Source of the DNA: a virus | Taxonomy: Duplodnaviria > Heunggongvirae > Uroviricota > Caudoviricetes | DNA: 33,807 nucleotides | Strand: one strand, 5' to 3' | Virus record (IMG/VR): IMGVR_UViG_2695420701_000007 | Location: 1 to 33,807 of that record | Part shown: piece after piece, positions 3,486-30,874 of the stretch | Numbering within the stretch: position 1 is the stretch's first letter | Layout: each line of letters begins with the position of its first letter | The notes under the pieces: generated by a model | What the model was told of the DNA's origin: nothing | Database searches by the model: none | What the model saw: only the letters and a program-made list of their open reading frames with translations | Position numbers and translations under genes: made by a program

Positions 3486-3813
3486 AGCGCATCCCCTGGC
3501 TTAACTGACCAAAATCGTAGGTATCGGCGGTAACAAGGAGCTGGCCGCGTTGCTCTTCGTCAATAAATACGGAGCCGGGAATGAGGCGTTCATCCTCCTC
3601 CAGGAGTATCACCATTTGCGTGAACAGGTCGGCCCTGAGTGTGGGGCTGTTCTCCGCAATCAGACGACAGGGCAGACCACTTTCAATCAGGGCGTGAATC
3701 ATGTCCTGAGCAATACTCTGGCGGTTGTCACACAAGACCGGCTCACTGGCGGAGTTGAACGTAAGATCGCCGTCAGTAATGAGCAGGTCGATATAAAGTG
3801 ATTTCGTACTCAT
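3475..3813 (-). CDS. Baseplate assembly protein W-like (gp25-like)
   Basis: 112 aa, directly downstream of the tape measure gene and upstream of the J-like gene; size and position typical of GPW/gp25-type proteins. Confidence 0.5.
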   Translation of the reverse strand: MSTKSLYIDLLITDGDLTFNSASEPVLCDNRQSIAQDMIHALIESGLPCRLIAENSPTLRADLFTQMVILLEEDERLIPGSVFIDEEQRGQLLVTADTYDFGQLSQGMRYAE

Positions 3814-3816
3814 TTG

Positions 3817-5898
3817 TCACCCCGCTGCCAGTTCGCTGTATTCCGCCAGTTGTCCCGGTGTCGCCAGGGTGTCAACGTGCAGTGTGATATCCTGCTTAAC
3901 GTTGTTATTGGTGACTTTGTCGCCCCGGTTGTTGCTTATCTGGTGACTTACCGGCCCGCCCTGGATGGCGGCGCTACGGTTGCCAGTGATAAGCTCCGGG
4001 GCGGGTGTCGGTGCGACGGTCTGTTGTGCGGTGCTGATATTGACACCGGGGATTTTGTTGAGCTTCTCTGCTATCCAGTTCCATGTCCCGGTAAAGGCGC
4101 TCTTAATGGAATCCCATATGCCGTCAAAGAGCTTGCCAATTCCAGCTGTGATATTGCCGAATGTGTCGGCCAGCGAGAAATTTTTAAACCAGTTCGTCAG
4201 ATTGTCCCATCCGGCTTTAATGCTGTTCCATGCATCATCAAACCAGCCCACCACAGCGTTAATGACTTTTAGCAGGGCACTGAAAGCTTCCGTGTCCATG
4301 ATGGCGGCTTTAATACTGTCCCAGTATTTGATAGCCAGACAGATCCCTACGGCAAGTGCGGCAATGGCGAGAATAATCAGGGTTATGGGACTTATCAGGA
4401 GTTGAAGCGCACCGCCTGCGAATGCCGTCGCCACGCCCCACAGGCGCATTGCAACCGCGCCCGCACGTAACACTACGTTCCAGGCTACGATCGCTGCTTT
4501 ACAGATCCCTGCCCAAAGAGCGACCAGCTTTGACCACACCCAGACGGCTTTTTCCTGAATCCATAGCCCCATCAGGCCAAGACGGGTTGAAAGCAGGGAG
4601 GGGCGTAATAAATCCAGGGTGAAGATTAGTCCTTTCCATGCGCCTTTCAGCACGCCAGCAATTCCGCTGAGCCCGGTCATGATAAAGCCGAAGGCCCCCA
4701 TCGTGATACTGGCAAGCGCCCCTGCTGCGGCAAAGGCGAGGGTCATTGCAGTGATATATCCCAGCCAGCGGGCAATATTGGGGAACGTATCCAGCCATTT
4801 CATGAAGGCTTTCCCGCCAGTGATGATTTTTTGCAGGAACGGGGCAAAGACGGGATCGAGCCGCAGACCGATACTGACGCGAACCTGCTCCAGTAAAGAA
4901 TTAACCTGATCCCACGGGTCAACCATCTTTTTCGCCATTTCGATGGCTTTATCCATGCCTTTGATGTTACCTAATGTATTGATGTTCCGTTTCAGCCCGT
5001 CAACATCTCCGGCCAGTAGTTTAATCATGGACACCGCTTCATCGCTGCCAAAGGCTTTTTTCAGCAGGTCTGCATCTGCCACTTTTGACAGATCACCAAA
5101 CTTTCCTTTAATCAGATCGATGATGCCGGTAATGCTTCTGGCACTGCCGTCCCGGTTGGTAAAGTTCAGCCCCAGCACTTTTTGCGCATTCCCAATCCCC
5201 GCCAGGAATGATTTATATTTGGTTCCCGCCTCGCTGCCTGACATGGTGGACTGGAGCTGTCCCAGTACGGCGAACTGTTCAGCGGCAGATACCTTCATTG
5301 CCTGCGCGTTGGCACCCAGCGCAGTAAAGGCAGCAGACATTTCATTACCGGTAGTTTTGAACACCTGAACGGCGGTTGCGGTCTGCCCGGCAATTTGTTC
5401 AACCCACTGCGTGCGCCCCATCTTCTCTGCGGTATTTTTAAAAACACCGTACATGGTGCCCATATAGTTAGTAATGGTGGCCGTGTCTGATTTGGTGGCT
5501 TTGGCGAGAATGGCGGATGCTTCAGTAAATTTTGGCAGTTCATCGCCCTGAAGTCCTGCGATGGCGGACTGGATATCGTAGGCGCTGCGGACGAAATTGC
5601 TGGCGCTTTCGCCGTAGTTAATGGCAAACGTCTGTGAAGTTTTACGCAGCTGATCGAGTGTTTTATTTGCCACATCCAGCGAGCTGACTTCGGCCAGCGC
5701 GGCTTCCATGTCGCGGGCGGGGTTGACCAGTCCTTTTATTCCCTGAGCAGCACCCCATAACCCGGCCACACCAAAACCGAGACGTTTAAAGTCGGCTGTT
5801 GCCTTGTCAGCAAATCCGGTCACAGCCGATTGCGCCTGTTTTAAGGGTCTCGTCAGCTTATCAACCAGACTTAGCGTAAAATCAAGTTCAGCAGCCAT
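3817..5898 (-). CDS. Tail tape measure protein
   Basis: 693 aa, Ala/Gly-rich with long predicted helices and a hydrophobic central block; follows the chaperone/frameshift gene; start ATG overlaps the stop of the E' frame (TAATG). Confidence 0.8.
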   Translation of the reverse strand: MAAELDFTLSLVDKLTRPLKQAQSAVTGFADKATADFKRLGFGVAGLWGAAQGIKGLVNPARDMEAALAEVSSLDVANKTLDQLRKTSQTFAINYGESASNFVRSAYDIQSAIAGLQGDELPKFTEASAILAKATKSDTATITNYMGTMYGVFKNTAEKMGRTQWVEQIAGQTATAVQVFKTTGNEMSAAFTALGANAQAMKVSAAEQFAVLGQLQSTMSGSEAGTKYKSFLAGIGNAQKVLGLNFTNRDGSARSITGIIDLIKGKFGDLSKVADADLLKKAFGSDEAVSMIKLLAGDVDGLKRNINTLGNIKGMDKAIEMAKKMVDPWDQVNSLLEQVRVSIGLRLDPVFAPFLQKIITGGKAFMKWLDTFPNIARWLGYITAMTLAFAAAGALASITMGAFGFIMTGLSGIAGVLKGAWKGLIFTLDLLRPSLLSTRLGLMGLWIQEKAVWVWSKLVALWAGICKAAIVAWNVVLRAGAVAMRLWGVATAFAGGALQLLISPITLIILAIAALAVGICLAIKYWDSIKAAIMDTEAFSALLKVINAVVGWFDDAWNSIKAGWDNLTNWFKNFSLADTFGNITAGIGKLFDGIWDSIKSAFTGTWNWIAEKLNKIPGVNISTAQQTVAPTPAPELITGNRSAAIQGGPVSHQISNNRGDKVTNNNVKQDITLHVDTLATPGQLAEYSELAAG

Positions 5899-17438: not shown

Positions 17439-17957
17439 TTATTCGAAGCTGGCAAGAATCTGTTCTCGAACAGAAGATTTCATCGTTAACCCACGATCCA
17501 GGAAAAATTGGAAATGCATTAAGGCTTGTTGTTTGTGGATAAATCTCCTGCGCACAGCCTCCTGGAGTAGCCCTCCGTGGCGGGCGGCTTTTACACCGCG
17601 TTCCGCACACGTTTTATAAACCGCATTATCCGCCGAAAGACATGTTGCATCATGTATTCTCGCGTTAACAACGCAGCTTATGTCCGCATACTTCAATGCT
17701 CTCCTGCGATTTTTTATCTCAGCCATTTCAATAAAATGTTCAGGTTCGTAATCATTGGTGAAATTGTATGGAAGTTGCAGGCGTGTAAGCTGTTCCTGAA
17801 CATCAAGATTGTATTTAGCTTTTAGTTCCTCGCAGACATAGGGGTCAATCCACACACCACCCGGGTAAATTTGCCAGATAAGATCTAAGCATTTACCTTC
17901 GTAAAAATCAGACAGTACATTCGTATCGATAACACATCTGGGGCATTCAAACGGCAT
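17439..17957 (-). CDS. PIN-like domain protein (DUF4411-like), putative toxin/nuclease
   Basis: Listed ORF 17439-17990; probable start MPFECPRCVIDTNVLSDFYEG (complement of 17955-17957), overlapping the upstream gene stop by about 11 nt. VIDTNVL is the typical N-terminal strand-1 motif of PIN domains; region is AT-rich. Confidence 0.55.
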   Translation of the reverse strand: MPFECPRCVIDTNVLSDFYEGKCLDLIWQIYPGGVWIDPYVCEELKAKYNLDVQEQLTRLQLPYNFTNDYEPEHFIEMAEIKNRRRALKYADISCVVNARIHDATCLSADNAVYKTCAERGVKAARHGGLLQEAVRRRFIHKQQALMHFQFFLDRGLTMKSSVREQILASFE

Positions 17958-19092
17958 CCTCTCCGGCCTCCTGTTCGTCGTACCATTCATCCAGAAGATT
18001 GCTGAGAGCTTTTCTGTCTAATTCTAAAAGTTCAGATATGAAGGTTTCCGACGCGGAACCGGCTTCCCATGCTTTACGCGATAAGACGGTTAGGCGACCT
18101 TTATAATTTAGTGCTTCCCTTATGGGATTTGGCTCGTGTCTCTTCCAGCCTTTACGATTGGCGGTTGCCCATAGGTATCTAGTGTTTTGCTGATTAATTA
18201 AATTACATTTACTAAGACGCTCAATGATGCAAGTGGCTGATACTCTGAAAATGCTTTTTAGTCTAAGGACGGTTTCCTCATACGCCCATCCACCACCTTG
18301 CATGACGAATTGTTTTCGCAACGCGCTTTCTGGTACCAAAAAACAAGCAGCAAAGTGATTAGCAACTTTTTCTTCCGGTGAAATTGCTTTGCCATTAGTT
18401 TTATAGCTTTTAGCAGGGCCATCATACTCATCACGGTGGAAGATAAGATGAGCATATTCATGGCAAATACTGAAGATTTGACGTTCTATTGAAATGCTGT
18501 CGTGAACATTTACATAAATCGCGGTACCGTATTTGTTCGAAAACGCAGAAAATCCGAATACCATCCCTTTATCGGTTTCCTCGCGATTGAACGGGATCAC
18601 TCGAATATCCGATGCTTCCAAAATGGCTACAATGTCACCAACGCAAGTAGCGTTTCCCATACCAAGACGGAAACGTTCTTCCATAGCCTTATCTTCGACT
18701 CTTCGCAAATCTTCTGCTTTGGCGGTAAAAACAGGCATTGAGTTAGGAAGATCTTCTGGCAAATTAGCATCAGCAGCTTCCTCAATTGCATTGATATTTT
18801 TTAACTTTTCAATCAACTCATTGCGAAGTCTGGCATCCAACAAATCCGGACTATCTGCTCGCATTGCAAAACGAAACTCGCCATCATCTTGCTCATAAAA
18901 ATACCCGACAGGCTTATCGAAAATCTTGCAGAGCATGATGAGTTGGGTAACGCTTGGGACGCCTAGCGCCTGCTCAAACTTACTGTAGGTTTGACGAACA
19001 ACACCGATCGCATCTGCGACGGCGCTTGCACTCATTCCTGCGTCGTTTCTGGCCTGAACCAAGCGTTCTGCTATACGCTGTTGAATGTTCAT
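17947..19092 (-). CDS. XRE-family HTH domain fused to ImmA/IrrE-type zinc metallopeptidase (COG2856-like)
   Basis: 381 aa; N-terminal HTH (MSASAVADAIGVVRQTYSKFEQ), C-terminal HExxH motif (ICHEYAHLIF) in a context typical of ImmA/IrrE peptidases; AT-rich codon usage. Confidence 0.65.
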   Translation of the reverse strand: MNIQQRIAERLVQARNDAGMSASAVADAIGVVRQTYSKFEQALGVPSVTQLIMLCKIFDKPVGYFYEQDDGEFRFAMRADSPDLLDARLRNELIEKLKNINAIEEAADANLPEDLPNSMPVFTAKAEDLRRVEDKAMEERFRLGMGNATCVGDIVAILEASDIRVIPFNREETDKGMVFGFSAFSNKYGTAIYVNVHDSISIERQIFSICHEYAHLIFHRDEYDGPAKSYKTNGKAISPEEKVANHFAACFLVPESALRKQFVMQGGGWAYEETVLRLKSIFRVSATCIIERLSKCNLINQQNTRYLWATANRKGWKRHEPNPIREALNYKGRLTVLSRKAWEAGSASETFISELLELDRKALSNLLDEWYDEQEAGEDAV

Positions 19093-27817: not shown

Positions 27818-28021
27818 TTAGCTGTTAGCCAAAGCGTCTTTTAACATCGCCACAAGGTTTACTTCAGGCTTTTCCATTTTGGCGCGTTTGGGGCGGATAA
27901 TAATTCGACCGTCAGCCAACATCTTTTTGCATGTATTAAGAGGGATACCTGTTATCTCTGCATATTTCTGCAGGGATACATAGGGGGCATTCACATTGAT
28001 ATTGATGGTTATACCTGACAT
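27818..28021 (-). CDS. Cox-like HTH regulator / excisionase-type protein
   Basis: 67 aa; APYVSLQKYAEITGIPLNTCKKMLADGRIIIRP follows the pattern of P2 Cox N-terminus (IPYQEFAKLIGKSTGAVRRMIDKGKLPVI). Confidence 0.5.
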   Translation of the reverse strand: MSGITININVNAPYVSLQKYAEITGIPLNTCKKMLADGRIIIRPKRAKMEKPEVNLVAMLKDALANS

Positions 28022-28037
28022 CCCACTAACCTCCTGA

Positions 28038-28244
28038 TCAGGAAGATTTGTTTTGTTCTTTCTGGGTTAGCTCTAGGCCGCGAAGGAAGATCATGCGCGC
28101 CATGTTAGAGGATGAGCGTTGTTCTTTAGCTGCCATCTCATCAATAAAGGCGCGCTCCTCCGCTGACAGTCGAAGTGCCAGTCTTTGACCTGTGGCGGTG
28201 TTACGCGGAATGCGTGACTTGGTGTCGTGACTAACTTGATTCAT
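28038..28244 (-). CDS. Ribbon-helix-helix-like small regulator; first gene of the early operon (Cro/Apl position)
   Basis: 68 aa; RLALRLSAEERAFIDEMA...SSNMARMIF resembles an RHH (Arc/CopG-type) fold; divergent from the repressor gene. Confidence 0.45.
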   Translation of the reverse strand: MNQVSHDTKSRIPRNTATGQRLALRLSAEERAFIDEMAAKEQRSSSNMARMIFLRGLELTQKEQNKSS

Positions 28245-28303: not shown

Positions 28304-28717
28304 ATGTCAACAGAAAAAGAGGAACTAAGCGTCATTATTGGCCGTCGATTACGGGAGGAGCGAGAGAAAATTGGCATGACCCAAGATGATATGGCGTCGA
28401 TTTTTGAAGTTTCTACAAAGACTTGGGGGAAGTATGAAAGAGGGGTGACTACACCGGATGCAGTTATGTTGAATCTCTTGGGAGGGCGCTGCGGAGTAGA
28501 TGTCTATTACATACTTTCTGGTAGTCGTGCACATGGCATCCCTAATGCTACTGAAGATGAGATTGAGCTAATTAAAATATATCGTTCTGCACCTTTGGCT
28601 GTTAAGGCGGCAGCTTTGGCAGCCTTGACTGCTGGTAGTTTGTCTCTAGGTACAATAAGAGCTTCTGGCAAAGGCCATCGTATTGCAGGTCGTGACTATA
28701 ACGAAACGAAGGGTTAG
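28304..28717 (+). CDS. Immunity repressor, XRE-family HTH (CI/C-like)
   Basis: 137 aa; N-terminal HTH (GMTQDDMASIFEVSTKTWGKYERG); divergent from the early operon and co-oriented with integrase. Confidence 0.7.
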   Translation: MSTEKEELSVIIGRRLREEREKIGMTQDDMASIFEVSTKTWGKYERGVTTPDAVMLNLLGGRCGVDVYYILSGSRAHGIPNATEDEIELIKIYRSAPLAVKAAALAALTAGSLSLGTIRASGKGHRIAGRDYNETKG

Positions 28718-28735
28718 TGATAGTAGGGAGGTGAC

Positions 28736-29383
28736 ATGGCTGTCAACTCAAACGGTTCAGACAATCGCGTTTCTGGGCGTGATTACCACGAAAAGAACAT
28801 TCGGATAGAGCGGTATGATGGTCGTCATACAGTCAACATTGCAATCCCTTCCTGTGGGGCTGATGAGCGCCCATTAGTCAAGGCTCAGCGCCATCAACTG
28901 AAGTTGTTGGTTGATAAGATTGTTGATGTCAGCAAGGAAGAATCGTTTGTTGTCTGGCGTAAACTTCATGCTGAAATCGGTGTTGATAGCATCGATAAGA
29001 TGACGGTGAATCAGTATCCAACCGCAATTAGCTTCCTCAATGCGATGCTTGACCGACATAAAGAGCGCGACGCCTGCAAATCACTTGTAAGTCTCCTTCT
29101 TCGCAATAGTGAGAATAATGAAGCTAGACAAAAACTTCTTCGATATTGTCATATCAATTTTGGAACAGGGCGCTTAAATGATCTTACTCGCTCTCAGCTT
29201 CAGATGGCTCTTTCATGGTTAGATCAGCAAACAACAGACTGTGAAAATAATTTGCCCTCAGATAATTCTAAATTTGTCGATAAACAATCGCGATTAGTGT
29301 TTCAGCAAATAATTAAAACATATCCAAAAGAAATGGGGGTATGTTTTGTTATTGGTGTTTTATTAGGCATGATTCTTTTCTGA
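28736..29383 (+). CDS. Hypothetical C-terminally membrane-anchored protein (cargo between repressor and integrase)
   Basis: 215 aa; single C-terminal hydrophobic helix GVCFVIGVLLGMILF; AT-rich relative to the phage core; co-transcribed orientation with repressor. Confidence 0.5.
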   Translation: MAVNSNGSDNRVSGRDYHEKNIRIERYDGRHTVNIAIPSCGADERPLVKAQRHQLKLLVDKIVDVSKEESFVVWRKLHAEIGVDSIDKMTVNQYPTAISFLNAMLDRHKERDACKSLVSLLLRNSENNEARQKLLRYCHINFGTGRLNDLTRSQLQMALSWLDQQTTDCENNLPSDNSKFVDKQSRLVFQQIIKTYPKEMGVCFVIGVLLGMILF

Positions 29384-29588
29384 TAGATCGTTGTTGGAGA
29401 AATCAATTATGGCAAAAGCTTGCTTTAACGACTTTGAAAGAAATAAAAAAGATAAATTAAGCGAGCTGACAAAGGTGAGATAAGGGGGAGTGCAACTAGT
29501 AATGTAAAAAATGGTGTGAGTTACTTGTCATAGTCTTAAAGTGAAGTAATTCCTTGTTCACTAGGAAGTTCAAAGAGGTAAATGAATT

Positions 29589-29846
29589 ATGGTAACTAAT
29601 CCGCAAATTCCATTGACTGGCTTATATGTATCCAAAGTTAATCCATCTAATCGTATAGTTGTTACTGATGTTCATATTGTTTAGGATGATGACGATGAGC
29701 CAGGAGAGCTTCCTTTCTATTTGGTTACTTTTGTAAATGAGGGGGATGAGGATGATATGTTGGCTCCTTCTTGGGAGCTAGATCCTGAGGAATGGGAGCA
29801 GTTAGTTGATGAAGAGCGCTTTATGCGCGTGGAGCAACCATCTTAA
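29589..29846 (+). pseudogene. Small acidic ORF interrupted by an in-frame TAG (amber) codon
   Basis: Good SD (AGAGG) then MVTNPQIPLTGLYVSKVNPSNRIVVTDVHIV - TAG at 29682-29684 - continuing in the same frame DDDDEPGELPFYLVTFVNEGDEDDMLAPSWELDPEEWEQLVDEERFMRVEQPS to TAA at 29844-29846. Confidence 0.4.
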
Positions 29847-29872
29847 TTTATCCTTGGTGTGCACTTTTTAAG

Positions 29873-30874
29873 ATGTCTGTTCGTAAATTACCTACTGGCA
29901 AATGGCTCTGTGAATGCTACCCCTACGGAGCAGCAGGAAAACGCATTCGTAAACAGTTTGTTACTAAGGGTGAGGCGCTCTCTTATGAGCGCCGTTTAAT
30001 GAACAGTAATTTGGGGAGCGAGTTTCAGGATGGTTCTGGCCCCCGCCTTTCCGAGTTGGTTGCTCGCTGGTTTGAGATGTACGGTAAGACACTGTCTTCC
30101 GGTGAAGAGCGAAGGGCTAAACTTGAGGCGATTTGCTCCCGGTTGGGGGATCCGCTTGCTTCTCAATTTGATAAAAACATGTTTGCCACCTACAGGGAAC
30201 GGCGATTATCAGGTGAATGGAATCCAAAGGGGAAGAGGAAGCTTAGCGAAGCAACCGTTAATCGTGAGCAGTCATATCTACATGCTGTTTTTGCCGAACT
30301 GAAGCGCCTTGGGGAGTGGTCTGGTGAAAACCCCTTAACTGGCATTCGCAAATTTCGTGAGGAAGAAAAGGAACTGGCGTTTCTGTATGTAGATGAGATT
30401 GAACGCCTTCTGATTGCGTGTGATGAGTCACGGAATAAAGATTTGGGGGTTGTTGTCCGTATTGGGCTTGCGACTGGTGCTCGGTGGAGTGAAGCAGAAG
30501 GATTAAAGCAATCTCAAGTACTGCCCGGTCGAATCACATTTGTTAAAACTAAAGGAAAGAAGAACCGCACTGTACCGATTTCACCTCAATTGCAGGCTAT
30601 GCTTCCTAAAAAACGAGGAGCGCTATTTTCACCATGTTATGAGGCTTTTGACGCTGCAATTAAGAGAGCGAAGATCGAGCTTCCTGATGGGCAATTAACT
30701 CATGTGCTACGTCACACGTTTGCCAGTCATTTTATGATGCGGGGCGGAAATATTCTTGTGTTGCAAAAAATACTGGGGCATAGCGATATAAAAATGACTA
30801 TGCGTTATGCGCATTTTGCTCCAGGTCATTTAGAGGCTGCTGTTGAATTGAACCCTTTTGACAATAGAGGGTAA
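29873..30874 (+). CDS. int: Tyrosine integrase (phage integrase family)
   Basis: 333 aa; C-terminal catalytic region HVLRHTFASHFMMRGGNILVLQKILGHSDIKMTMRYAHF (HxxR ... Y); adjacent to the tRNA-derived att core. Confidence 0.85.
   Translation: MSVRKLPTGKWLCECYPYGAAGKRIRKQFVTKGEALSYERRLMNSNLGSEFQDGSGPRLSELVARWFEMYGKTLSSGEERRAKLEAICSRLGDPLASQFDKNMFATYRERRLSGEWNPKGKRKLSEATVNREQSYLHAVFAELKRLGEWSGENPLTGIRKFREEEKELAFLYVDEIERLLIACDESRNKDLGVVVRIGLATGARWSEAEGLKQSQVLPGRITFVKTKGKKNRTVPISPQLQAMLPKKRGALFSPCYEAFDAAIKRAKIELPDGQLTHVLRHTFASHFMMRGGNILVLQKILGHSDIKMTMRYAHFAPGHLEAAVELNPFDNRG

Follow-up and report, generated by a model that had tools for sequence, protein, structure and literature searches.

Why would a phage carry, directly behind the gene of its immunity repressor, a gene for a small membrane-anchored protein? 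The question is raised by a 33,807-nucleotide stretch of tailed-phage DNA (IMG/VR virus record IMGVR_UViG_2695420701_000007, positions 1 to 33,807; hereafter, the window), in which a 215-codon gene, ORF215 (28736-29383, + strand), lies between a repressor and an integrase. Its product, WP_000290340.1, is recorded as a 'hypothetical protein' and belongs to Pfam family PF27202 and to the PHROG family phrog_5825 (E 1.8e-86), whose function is unknown. A preliminary description proposed an AT-rich lysogenic-conversion or exclusion gene. The module that we report here did not turn up in our literature searches, which covered prophage genes resembling Flk, antirepressors anchored in the membrane, and the immunity regions of Peduoviridae.

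The gene and its setting

The immunity repressor (28304-28717, +) has 137 residues, made up of an XRE-type helix-turn-helix (HTH) domain at approximately residues 10-72, an Ala-rich helix at residues 85-111 and a C-terminal tail. Its Pfam matches are HTH_19, HTH_31 and HTH_3, and the nearest solved HTH domains are those of ImmR (7t8i) and DdrO (6rmq). At the gene junction (28715-28735, +), the stop codon TAG is followed in frame by TGA TAG TAG, and then by the Shine-Dalgarno sequence GGAGGT (28727-28732) that precedes ORF215. ORF215 begins 18 nt past the repressor stop in the identical reading frame and, because four consecutive in-frame stops stand before it, ATG 28736 is its sole possible start. 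Junctions in related loci measure 8-18 nt. Fusion of the two genes by read-through or frameshifting was rejected, given the four stops and the junctions of 8, 11 or 13 nt, hence out of frame, at other loci.

Downstream lies a variable cargo slot (29384-29872, +), whose only content here is what remains, at 41 aa, of a DUF8087 gene (29721-29846); related prophages have in it an 85-aa DUF8087 gene, YebY, a 288-aa ORF or a 128-aa ORF. The slot ends at a P2-type tyrosine integrase (29873-30874, +; Pfam Int_N and Phage_integrase), presumed to be the final gene of the lysogenic operon, after which come the host genes yecA and tyrP. On the other side of the repressor, the divergent early lytic genes (27818-28244, - strand) comprise an Arc-like 68-aa ORF (28038-28244) and a Cox-like 67-aa ORF (27818-28021), with matches to phrog_3431 (E 2.7e-27) and phrog_575 (E 1.2e-27); their order and sequence are conserved in related loci. 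Gene order bears out the earlier view that ORF215 has the orientation of the repressor and the integrase. It is also closely coupled to both and, on this organisation, its expression in lysogens is plausible. Consensus scans, which are crude, detected no clear promoter- or terminator-like site flanking ORF215.

The low GC content first remarked upon is real (0.412, against 0.515 for the window), but would not by itself single out ORF215 as a separate acquisition, since low GC extends over the entire regulatory block (0.454 in the repressor gene, 0.464 in int, 0.422 in the cox-like gene) and the shortfall falls mostly in the variable final 49 codons (0.307). Residues 1-166, the conserved part of the protein, are encoded at 0.444, a value equal to that of the neighbouring genes.

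A terminal motif shared by the repressor and its neighbour

The head of ORF215 had been said to echo the extreme C-terminus of the repressor, and this likeness survives both shuffling and comparison across loci. The repressor segment IRASGKGHRIAGRDYNE (aa 118-134, nt 28655-28705) aligns to VNSNGSDNRVSGRDYHE in ORF215 (aa 3-19, nt 28742-28792, +) with a Smith-Waterman score of 50, against 27.5 ± 4.3 for shuffled sequences, 5 of 5000 of which reach 50; the match within the window is short, at 17 aa with 6-7 identities (p ~0.001). The complete tail, IRASGKGHRIAGRDYNETKG, covers aa 118-137 (28655-28714, +), and its core is GKGHRIAGRDYNE (nt 28667-28705). At the nucleotide level, the coordinates first proposed for the alignment are off by roughly 12-15 nt; with the register corrected, 29 of 51 positions match, distributed as 9, 13 and 7 over the first, second and third codon positions, so that the likeness lies at the protein level and does not reflect a recent DNA duplication.

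The shared pattern, G-x-x-N/H-R-x-A-G-R-D-Y/F-x-E (the GRD motif), occurs near the end of an HTH repressor, 11-17 aa short of its stop, and again at the N-terminus of the following ORF. The pair was present in 92 of the 95 loci of a first set and in 161/170 of a later set, which holds 58 distinct pairs; in these, the G, R, A, G, R, D and E of the motif are invariant or nearly so. For the invariant residues, 4-6 synonymous codons are in use, which indicates selection at the protein level. This codon diversity, together with the peak of in-window identity at second codon positions, led us to reject an RNA- or DNA-level cause for the repeat. The 'local duplication' of the preliminary description may thus be kept in an ancient sense but not as a recent event, synonymous codons being scrambled at invariant residues.

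In both proteins, no other part is as strongly conserved as the motif. Across the ORF215 family, N10, R11, D16 and E19 of the first repeat (aa 3-19) are invariant, G14 and R15 nearly so; in relatives at 23-44% identity the head is the densest cluster of invariant residues (G10, N13, A16, G17, R18 and D19, with R14 and E22 nearly invariant). A second, degenerate repeat may be read in residues 26-39, RYDGRHTVNIAIPS (28811-28852, +), where D28, T32, N34 and P38 are invariant, G29, R30, H31, I35, A36 and I37 nearly so, and relatives have x-G-R-D-[ILF]-V-N-I-x-[IL]-P; clear tandem GRD repeats occur in the relatives P0122, P0124, P0133 and P0158. On the repressor side, 44 distinct cognate repressors, when aligned, differ in their HTH regions but keep the C-terminal helix and tail conserved. 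The helix, DEIELIKIYRSAPLAVKAAALAALTAG (aa 85-111; 28556-28636, +), is conserved across all immunity types of this alignment and presumably acts in dimerisation or as an effector helix ahead of the tail. A homologue search with the C-terminal 57 aa of the repressor, too short a query, returned 3 fragments. We also considered a LexA-like Ala-Gly cleavage site in 'RVAGRD', and set it aside: the repressor lacks an S24 peptidase domain and the partner often has Ser-Gly at this place.

Tail and head appear to co-vary. In a comparison that ignores phylogeny, cognate pairs score 9.16, against 8.61 ± 0.13 for shuffled pairs, and none of 10,000 shuffles reaches the cognate value; one lineage has GRDL and Q-G in tail and head copies alike. 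A second motif variant, Q.F.G.V.G.VAGRD[IV][IV]N, is likewise found in a repressor tail and the next gene's head, and VDQVAGRD is present in both copies within a lineage; for this variant co-variation was not significant (10.1 against 9.27 ± 0.55, with 747 of 10,000 shuffles reaching it).

The motif pair persists through exchange of the repressor DNA-binding domain, the partner body or the phage backbone. Repressors across cassettes carry either HTH_3/HTH_31 or Phage_CI_repr domains, and, among the loci found by an unbiased DNA-pattern scan, each tail-bearing ORF examined has a GRD-headed gene directly downstream (15/15). The head also stands on unrelated bodies: Zn-ribbon proteins with two transmembrane (TM) segments, other 2-TM proteins, bitopic proteins with a C-terminal Cys domain, and a minimal protein of 81 aa. 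All of these alternative partners have TM-like segments, and what they have in common with phrog_5825 is confined to residues 1-25. Since the same head precedes unrelated bodies, the motif cannot bind its partner's own body, and its interpretation as part of the Flk_N fold described below, or as a ligand of that fold, was rejected on the same ground.

Overall, proteins that carry the pair are ~25-35% identical and come from several phage backbones and from three bacterial orders. The cassette is widespread in prophages of clinical E. coli, Shigella, Klebsiella, Enterobacter, Serratia and Providencia, and is also seen in Pseudomonas and Ralstonia; a 60%-identical homologue of ORF215 (P0055), found on 754 contigs, is very common in Klebsiella pneumoniae. 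A scan of species-representative genomes yielded 6 loci only. Among deposited phages, a nucleotide search found no match and, at the protein level, Escherichia phage 520873 was the sole match; its record, being frameshifted and including host yecA, is uninformative on whether the gene is dispensable. Every related locus examined has an ORF215-type gene directly behind the repressor, although it is left unannotated in the frameshifted record of phage 520873. In public records the partner gene is labelled 'hypothetical protein', 'membrane protein' or, misleadingly, 'flagella biosynthesis regulator'. This distribution speaks against the lysogenic-conversion (moron) role first suggested: the gene is conserved beside the repressor in the related prophages checked, the variable cargo lies downstream of it, and the cassette accompanies the repressor even in unrelated high-GC backbones that lack P2-type int and cox.

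A Flk_N body on a tail anchor

The body of ORF215 is a helical Flk_N domain (aa 45-171; 28868-29248, +), the PF27202 (Flk_N) assignment having been precomputed for an identical protein (P0001) and for all close homologues. The NCBIfam Flk model matches aa 40-166 (E 2.8e-15; 56.4 bits; profile positions 25-150 of 339), and hhalign against 20 Flk orthologues gives a probability of 97.6% (E 2.6e-12; 139 columns, 24% identity). These 56.4 bits compare with an equivalog cut-off of 353 bits for NF007987, so that ORF215 does not qualify as Flk proper. Like Flk (Fluke/RflH), it has the homologous helical domain, in a presumably cytoplasmic body on one very hydrophobic C-terminal anchor. It differs in having a single Flk_N module in 215 aa, where Flk has two in ~330 aa (in BLASTP, the ORF215 module matches each of the two), in its GRD head, which is absent from Flk, and in its location in a phage immunity cassette rather than at the chromosomal flk locus. 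Chromosomal Flk may itself have arisen from a phage gene of this kind. A 'Flk' gene in Escherichia phage 500465-2 was discarded as the chromosomal flk, located in the host flank. Searching the PDB sequences with the family profile gave no significant match.

Two mosaic joints bear on how this protein is inherited. Relative to heteroimmune E. coli prophages, one joint falls at nt 28679, within the repressor tail; the second comes after the Flk_N domain, where the matches H15-H18 lose similarity past nt 29232. The segment from tail through head to Flk_N domain is thus passed on as a unit, while the HTH and the anchor or cargo are swapped. Shortly beyond the second breakpoint begins a predicted-disordered linker (aa 172-196; 29249-29323, +; pLDDT <50 at 172-187), which is variable, with no conservation in alignment A1. 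The single C-terminal anchor of the preliminary description is confirmed: ORF215 has one hydrophobic segment, at residues 198-215 (15-aa Kyte-Doolittle mean 2.79), and an AlphaFold helix at 197-214 (pLDDT ~82), which together define the tail anchor PKEMGVCFVIGVLLGMILF (aa 197-215; 29324-29380, +). The anchor contains a GxxxG, in which G207 is invariant in alignments A1 and A2, and G211 is invariant in A1 and nearly so (at least 90%) in A2, which has 81 sequences. [quoted passage not shown]

AlphaFold modelling from the single sequence of ORF215 was uninformative (pLDDT 51). With 81 sequences, it gave confident values for the Flk_N domain (pLDDT 84-96) and anchor (~82), and 38-57 for the invariant GRD head, whose first repeat lies below 50; such low values in a conserved segment would be typical of a motif that folds only upon binding. 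A protease identity was rejected, as ORF215 lacks a catalytic motif and the Pfam search found no Peptidase_M78. Other matches point to phage regulators. Residues 51-105 show a weak match (E 1.7e-6) to the Ant family phrog_245, and remote relatives include AntA with ORF6C, Rha with a Flk_N-like domain, and a fusion of XRE-HTH with an ORF6C-like domain (P0253). The links to Ant and ORF6C are weak (E ~1e-4 to 1e-6), the ORF6C matches occurring only in these remote relatives, and for ORF215 itself the Pfam search gave no direct ORF6C match and no Ant-type N-terminal domain. Weak but consistent similarities would thus tie the Flk_N core to regulators of antirepressor type.

A candidate membrane partner for the repressor

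We favour, with a probability of roughly one in two, the interpretation that the repressor and ORF215 form a two-gene cassette, in which ORF215 serves the repressor as a dedicated, membrane-anchored partner, docked through tail and head and acting as a latent antirepressor or sensor. The repressor would present its disordered C-terminal GRD tail beyond the HTH domain and helix, and ORF215 its disordered GRD head, of one good and one degenerate repeat, ahead of the Flk_N domain, linker and tail anchor. Tail and head would pair directly, by a homotypic association of β-strand type, probably helped by the co-emergence of the two motifs, which are encoded ~90 nt apart on one mRNA. Pairing would dock the repressor onto ORF215 at the membrane, so that ORF215 would set, or gate, how much repressor is free; on some membrane-proximal cue, it would capture and inactivate the repressor and so favour lytic growth, with no need for cleavage mediated by RecA. 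If the partner is made constitutively from the repressor's operon, it cannot be a simple antirepressor and a latent state must be assumed. We infer the direction of the effect (capture as opposed to release or stabilisation); the opposite sign, with ORF215 stabilising, buffering or tethering the repressor, matches the data equally well.

Several known systems share elements of this proposal. The rep-partner-int order is that of ICEBs1, in which immR-immA-int encode a repressor, its antagonist and an integrase. The repressor HTH is closest in sequence, among solved structures, to those of ImmR and of DdrO from the DdrO/IrrE system of Deinococcus, and ImmA/IrrE antagonists are, as proposed for ORF215, made constitutively and in need of activation. 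ORF215 nevertheless lacks an M78/COG2856 domain and HEXXH (its invariant H78-A-E80 is no HEXXH), so that, if it antagonises the repressor, it would do so by binding or sequestering it rather than by cleavage. Likeness to the antirepressors Ant, AntA/AntB and Rha consists of the weak phrog_245 match and the fusions in remote relatives; unlike them, ORF215 has no AntA, Bro-N, KilA-N or KilAC domain, is anchored in the membrane, and is presumably co-expressed with the repressor instead of being repressed by it or by LexA. Anti-sigma factors such as RseA, with sigma-E, offer a further parallel, in that one operon encodes a transcription factor together with a membrane-anchored protein that binds it, and the ORF215 relatives with a TM segment and C-terminal Cys domain have the topology of bitopic sensors; there is no homology, the target here would be a repressor, and ORF215 has no periplasmic domain. 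In lambda cI-rexA-rexB, the rex genes are co-transcribed with the repressor in lysogens and lie in the immunity region. RexA binds CI and promotes the lytic transition, and the membrane protein RexB modulates it (10.1101/2021.04.19.439022). Rex shows no kinship in sequence or fold with ORF215 and has no motif in common with CI, and ORF215 would join in a single protein the repressor-directed part and the membrane anchor.

The layout of the motif resembles that of amyloid signalling pairs (fungal HET-S/NWD2; bacterial BASS motifs with Bell-domain proteins and NLRs; E. coli Bab/Agp of BASS11): some 20 aa at one C-terminus and at the N-terminus encoded by the adjacent gene, modular over partner domains, Gly/Asn-rich with alternating hydrophobic residues, disordered in the monomer (predicted here), one repeat on one side and two on the other, and one partner membrane-targeted. 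The proteins joined are different, being an HTH repressor and a Flk_N, Zn-ribbon or other membrane protein rather than an NLR or sensor and a Bell/HeLo effector; the N-terminal copy is here on the membrane protein; and the GRD motif does not resemble the residues stated for BASS11 (Q92, D99, N100; I87-G88-S89-V90). That the GRD pair might be an amyloid-like, templated cross-β motif in control of a transcription factor, partner oligomerisation nucleating co-assembly of repressor tails into an inactive, self-propagating form, is a speculative extension that we hold to be unlikely. If true, it would amount to an all-or-none, SOS-independent induction switch wired to the envelope in temperate phages of Enterobacterales, Pseudomonas and Ralstonia.

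The same resemblance can be turned toward cell death: the tail of the repressor, or of a displaced or aggregated form of it, would nucleate assembly of the GRD-headed protein, which would damage or depolarise the membrane and kill or arrest the cell, as in abortive infection or superinfection exclusion. The partners resemble many Abi effectors in being small membrane proteins that have 1-2 TM segments and differ in their bodies; ORF215 would be co-expressed with the repressor, like lambda rexAB; the conserved GxxxG suggests oligomerisation within the membrane; and in Bab/Agp and HET-S/NWD2, where the C-terminus of one gene product likewise answers the N-terminus of the next, the membrane effector is the output. 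In those known pairs, however, the C-terminal motif belongs to the effector and the N-terminal one to the sensor, the reverse of what is seen here, and a large folded cytoplasmic domain on a short single anchor without periplasmic part is not an obvious pore former. PADLOC gave no match either, so that the exclusion role first proposed gains no direct support, and we regard this effector reading as improbable. Chance likeness, or a functionless relic of duplication in an ordinary AT-rich moron, would fit the low GC and the brevity of the in-window match; it is at odds with a pair that recurs in 161 of 170 loci at ~25-35% identity, in several backbones and three orders, with the scrambling of synonymous codons at invariant residues, and with a partner gene never absent from the cassette. 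We consider it vanishingly improbable and, on the comparative sequence data, already refuted.

Two further explanations, both of which we judge quite unlikely, leave the pairing of tail and head aside. ORF215 might be a lysogenic-conversion protein that mimics Flk, acting on the flagellar type III export gate (FlhB, or FlhA_C, the cytoplasmic domain of FlhA) to alter flagellar assembly or FlgM secretion in lysogens, the motif being incidental. The Flk homology is real by both profile searches, the tail-anchored topology is that of Flk, and Flk holds the flagellar export apparatus in its early mode, its interaction with FlhA_C having been tested (PMC13344023). Against this stand the gap between 56 and 353 bits, one module instead of two, a head that Flk lacks, the existence of cassettes with partners entirely devoid of Flk_N, and the attachment of the family to repressors rather than to flagellar genes, its 60% homologue being very common in Klebsiella pneumoniae. 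That species is classically non-flagellated. Alternatively, the motif, rich in charged residues, might recruit a third protein of host origin, as a tag or degron common to both proteins and read by a factor such as a membrane-associated AAA+ protease or a chaperone, with ORF215 as pseudo-substrate or adaptor setting repressor stability, much as lambda CIII shields CII from FtsH. The motif is terminal, predicted to be disordered and rich in invariant charged residues, like a short linear motif, and every partner brings it to the membrane, where FtsH is located; 186 CII is reported to be degraded by FtsH and RseP (PMC7708051). Degrons, on the other hand, normally require one kind of free terminus, whereas the motif lies 3-10 residues from an N-terminus and 3-5 from a C-terminus, and a site for a host factor should not co-vary between copies as GRDL/GRDL does, or show VDQVAGRD in both. 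We know of no protease motif that resembles the GRD motif.

Returning to the partner interpretation, the cassette suggests that the phage's lysis/lysogeny switch is connected to the cell membrane in a way not yet described, rather than that the phage has picked up an accessory conversion gene. How repressors that are not cleaved in the SOS response are inactivated, in P2-like and many other temperate phages, is poorly understood, and the cassette bears on that gap. If tail and head do pair, the cassette would represent a general, modular means of coupling the lysis/lysogeny decision to the membrane or envelope, and would extend the principle of terminal motifs shared between neighbouring genes from immune cell-death systems to gene regulation.

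A phage-borne Flk_N protein behind the repressor gene

The P2-like (Peduoviridae) prophage has an integration site adjoining yecA and tyrP, and the region studied here is 100% identical to E. coli CFSAN029787 and three further genomes. The 215-aa ORF of the preliminary description (ORF215, 28736-29383, + strand) does exist: it is preceded by GGAGGT and starts 18 nt downstream of an XRE-type repressor gene (28304-28717, 137 aa). Since the repressor stop and three further in-frame stops read TAG TGA TAG TAG (28715-28726) and ORF215 lies in the same frame, ATG 28736 is its sole possible start; in related loci, junctions measure 8-18 nt with one to three stops. The single C-terminal anchor also stands, as one hydrophobic segment at residues 198-215. 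The low GC that had been noted holds against the window (0.412 versus 0.515), but the repressor (0.454), int (0.464) and cox-like (0.422) genes are likewise AT-rich, and the deficit lies mainly in the last 49 codons (0.307, versus 0.444 for residues 1-166). Elsewhere in the window, a low-GC island (0.41-0.44; 17439-19092, - strand) separates the capsid/terminase genes from gpA. It encodes a 381-aa protein combining XRE-HTH and Peptidase_M78 (IrrE/ImmA-like) domains (PADLOC RmrA, E 3e-35) and, overlapping that gene, a 183-aa PIN-domain protein (PF01850) with a weak PADLOC match to PDC-S70; this island is probably defence or toxin-antitoxin cargo.

A local Pfam search of ORF215 gave no significant match. 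The protein belongs over its full length to phrog_5825, a PHROGs family of unknown function (E 1.8e-86), and PF27202 (Flk_N) is assigned to an identical protein and to all homologues in a large protein database. Residues 40-166 match the NCBIfam model for Flk, a flagellar regulator (E 2.8e-15), at 56 bits, far below the equivalog cut-off of 353 bits. In a profile-profile alignment against 20 chromosomal Flk orthologues, residues 29-168 paired with Flk residues 14-152 (probability 97.6%, E 2.6e-12). An AlphaFold monomer model, built from an 81-sequence alignment (mean pLDDT 74.6), consists of a five-helix Flk_N domain (residues 45-171, pLDDT 84-96) and a C-terminal anchor helix (residues 197-214, about 82), separated by a linker at residues 172-187 (below 50) and preceded by some 40 low-confidence residues (38-57). 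Experiments have established Flk itself as a tail-anchored protein of the inner membrane whose body is cytoplasmic (PMC6794478; PMC13344023). Having one Flk_N-type module where Flk has two, together with an anchor and an extra N-terminal segment, ORF215 is therefore a phage-borne, half-size Flk_N protein, which belongs to the Flk_N domain family yet is distinct from Flk. It falls outside the ImmA, Rex and BASS families and probably outside the Ant family as well.

A terminal motif common to repressor and partner

The preliminary description had also pointed to an echo between the repressor C-terminus and the ORF215 N-terminus. This echo survives alignment statistics: repressor residues 118-134 (IRASGKGHRIAGRDYNE) align with ORF215 residues 3-19 (VNSNGSDNRVSGRDYHE) with a local score of 50, reached by 5 of 5000 shuffles (27.5 +/- 4.3). 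The local duplication then suggested did not hold up as a fresh DNA event, since 29 of 51 nt match in register, split 9/13/7 by codon position; the similarity is at the protein level. ORF215 carries a good repeat at residues 7-19 and a degenerate second one at residues 26-39 (RYDGRHTVNIAIPS), which reads GRD[ILF]VNI in its relatives; we infer one repeat in the repressor and two in the partner.

We refer to the repressor copy as the tail and to the partner copy as the head of a GRD motif. Exactly two copies, in the repressor tail and the Flk_N protein N-terminus, were found in 92 of the first 95 loci, with the tail copy 12-14 residues ahead of the stop of the upstream repressor. The 44 distinct repressors comprise several HTH sequences and have in common a C-terminal helix, DE.EL..[FY]R.APLA[VI]KAA.LAALTAG, and the tail [IV]x[VI]SGxGNR[VI]AGRD[YF]NExKK. 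Searched exhaustively with a profile, 1.84 billion cluster representatives yielded only 141 clusters, in three groups: full-length ORF215 relatives; tail-anchored proteins of ~190-200 aa, 23-44% identical and still starting V.V.G..NR.AGRDY.EV; and chromosomal Flk (~330 aa), without the motif. Among the distant relatives, conservation is densest in the head, which groups six invariant residues, and their loci again present repressor tail then head, even on contigs of 57-65% GC, where the repressor is 28-35% and the Flk_N protein 22-31% identical to those of the window. These high-GC contigs contained no P2-type int or cox inside the fetched 3.5-kb flanks.

Overall, the pair was present in 161 of 170 loci, in 58 distinct versions, with the core G-x-x-[NQH]-R-x-A-G-R-D-[YFL]-x-E in both copies. 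The invariant Gly, Arg and Ala use 4-6 different codons, so selection acts at the protein level. Cognate copies share 9.16 identities versus 8.61 +/- 0.13 after shuffling (0 of 10000 shuffles reach this value, in a test that ignores shared ancestry), and GRDL and Q-G occur in both copies within one lineage. Among the source organisms are Escherichia, Shigella, Klebsiella, Raoultella, Enterobacter, Serratia, Citrobacter, Erwinia, Providencia, Pseudomonas and Ralstonia; source annotations are always "hypothetical protein", "membrane protein" or "flagella biosynthesis regulator". Compared with the family alignment, host Flk (P0161-P0237) has the Flk_N module duplicated in tandem and no GRD head. 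The single-module, GRD-headed phage form occurs in more orders than Flk (Enterobacterales, Pseudomonas, Ralstonia), so Flk may be a domesticated prophage gene.

Exchange of partners and genomic context

A DNA-pattern scan for NRVAGRD[YF] over 2.9 million viral contigs, independent of Flk_N, matched almost exclusively repressor tails or next-gene heads, with two strays (L223 and an ORF in L220); a GRD-headed gene lay directly 3' of all 15 tail-bearing ORFs examined. Partners other than Flk_N proteins are numerous here and include a Zn-ribbon preceding two TM segments, other two-TM proteins, two TM segments with a coiled coil, and a minimal form of 81 aa. They match phrog_5825 over residues 1-25 only, and Pfam gave no informative match for them. 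The tail-bearing proteins mostly match HTH_3/HTH_31 or Phage_CI_repr in Pfam, several under the gathering score, and one of the ten has only a weak YdaS_toxin match.

A second motif variant, Q.F.G.V.G.[VI]AGRD[IV][IV]N, has the same arrangement, as in locus L290 (tail QNFHSQVDQVAGRDVVNQGRRKK, followed by the stop; head MTQEFHGPVDQVAGRDIVNQ). The partners in this variant are likewise membrane proteins; they include ~280-aa bitopic proteins that combine a Flk_N/ORF6C-like domain and a coiled coil with one TM segment and a C-terminal, probably periplasmic, Cys-containing domain. Co-variation among 16 second-variant pairs was not significant (747 of 10000 shuffles reach the observed value). Bitopic relatives (L273, L277, L302, L316, L288; P0249, P0222) conserve a ~60-aa end domain with two Cys, C.F.GK.Y..GS.I.N..APD.EC, which suggests an extracytoplasmic sensing module joined to the same head. 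Two different GRD-headed membrane-protein genes follow one tail-bearing repressor in tandem in L109 (3017-4133) and L309 (1198-2500). The natural fusion P0253 (239 aa, Logan assembly) joins an XRE HTH (HTH_3, E 1.6e-13), an Asn/Gly/Ile-rich stretch (GVNIAGSNSGNINIDNS) and an ORF6C/Flk_N-like domain, and may be a Rosetta-stone link between both cassette proteins.

Around the Flk_N form, gene order is conserved in E. coli, Klebsiella and Serratia prophages: leftward cox-like and arc-like genes, then, rightward, the repressor, the Flk_N gene, variable genes and int. The slot after the Flk_N gene holds DUF8087, YebY, a 288-aa ORF or a 128-aa ORF; in the window (29384-29872) it retains only a 41-aa DUF8087 remnant (29721-29846), the gene product being 85 aa long in strain JNEC-KY174. 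With the Flk_N gene fixed after the repressor and the variable genes downstream, the earlier proposal of lysogenic-conversion cargo loses its footing, and gene order argues that ORF215 is not cargo. By megablast, heteroimmune E. coli prophages are ~81% identical from nt 28679 on, within the repressor tail, and another set is 92% identical only as far as nt 29232, the end of the Flk_N domain. These joints indicate joint inheritance of tail, head and Flk_N domain, with the HTH domain and the anchor or cargo being swapped.

Several observations concern neighbouring genes and related records. The 68-aa ORF that separates cox from the repressor (28038-28244, - strand; phrog_3431, E 2.7e-27) is of the Arc-like ribbon-helix-helix type, keeps 40-59% identity in related loci and is unannotated in RefSeq copies of the prophage; it is likely to open the lytic operon as the equivalent of Cro/Apl. 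In L027 (IMG/VR 2778261154_000006, about 3500-4030), two tandem tail-bearing repressor genes precede one Flk_N gene, the proximal tail being mutated (AGCDY in place of AGRDY). The GenBank entries presented as "complete genome" for Escherichia phages 520873 and 500465-2 (NC_049344.1 and NC_049343.1) include host genes (yecA; flk, fabB, MFS transporter), and the former has frameshifts, a split int and an unannotated Flk_N gene; both appear to be prophage predictions and not sequenced virions.

Possible roles of the cassette

Both motif copies are terminal, the head is predicted to be disordered, and it should face the cytoplasmic side of the membrane in every partner. Since the head is found on unrelated bodies, its binding target must be something other than the partner's own domain. 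As tail and head are inherited as one unit, with some parallel changes, the simplest reading is that they pair directly and dock the repressor onto the membrane-anchored partner. Their coding sequences lie ~90 nt apart, across the 8-18-nt junction, so the two motifs would leave ribosomes close together in space and time. A degron or host-factor tag common to both termini is hard to reconcile with the use of one motif at N- and C-terminus alike and with parallel changes within a lineage. Chance resemblance is ruled out by the comparative data.

For the docked partner, we favour the role of a latent, co-expressed repressor modulator, either antirepressor or sensor, because of operon order, HTH kinship, the ties of the Flk_N core and the RexA precedent. 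The order rep-partner-int parallels immR-immA-int of ICEBs1; the nearest solved structures to the repressor HTH are ImmR and DdrO; and weak links connect the Flk_N core with regulators of the Ant, Rha and ORF6C types as well as with an XRE-HTH fusion. Similarly, lambda RexA is made from the CI promoter, binds CI and promotes lytic transition, modulated by the membrane protein RexB (10.1101/2021.04.19.439022). Tethering, buffering or stabilising of the repressor would fit equally well. The main rival to such modulation is a repressor-triggered membrane effector (Abi or exclusion), in keeping with the small membrane proteins among the partners and with amyloid-signalling pairs like Bab/Agp. Mimicry of Flk on the flagellar export gate is possible for the lineage of the window; it leaves the cassette in general unexplained, and ORF215 fails the Flk equivalog test.

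The cassette is kin to known kinds, either repressor-partner modules or terminal-motif gene pairs. Full-text literature searches returned no description of such a repressor/membrane-partner module, and neither repressors nor HTH proteins come up in the papers on amyloid-signalling motifs. A phage repressor joined by a common terminal motif to the membrane protein of the next gene thus appears to be a new element. Were the motif to act by templated cross-beta assembly, an unproven possibility, the cassette would be categorically new.
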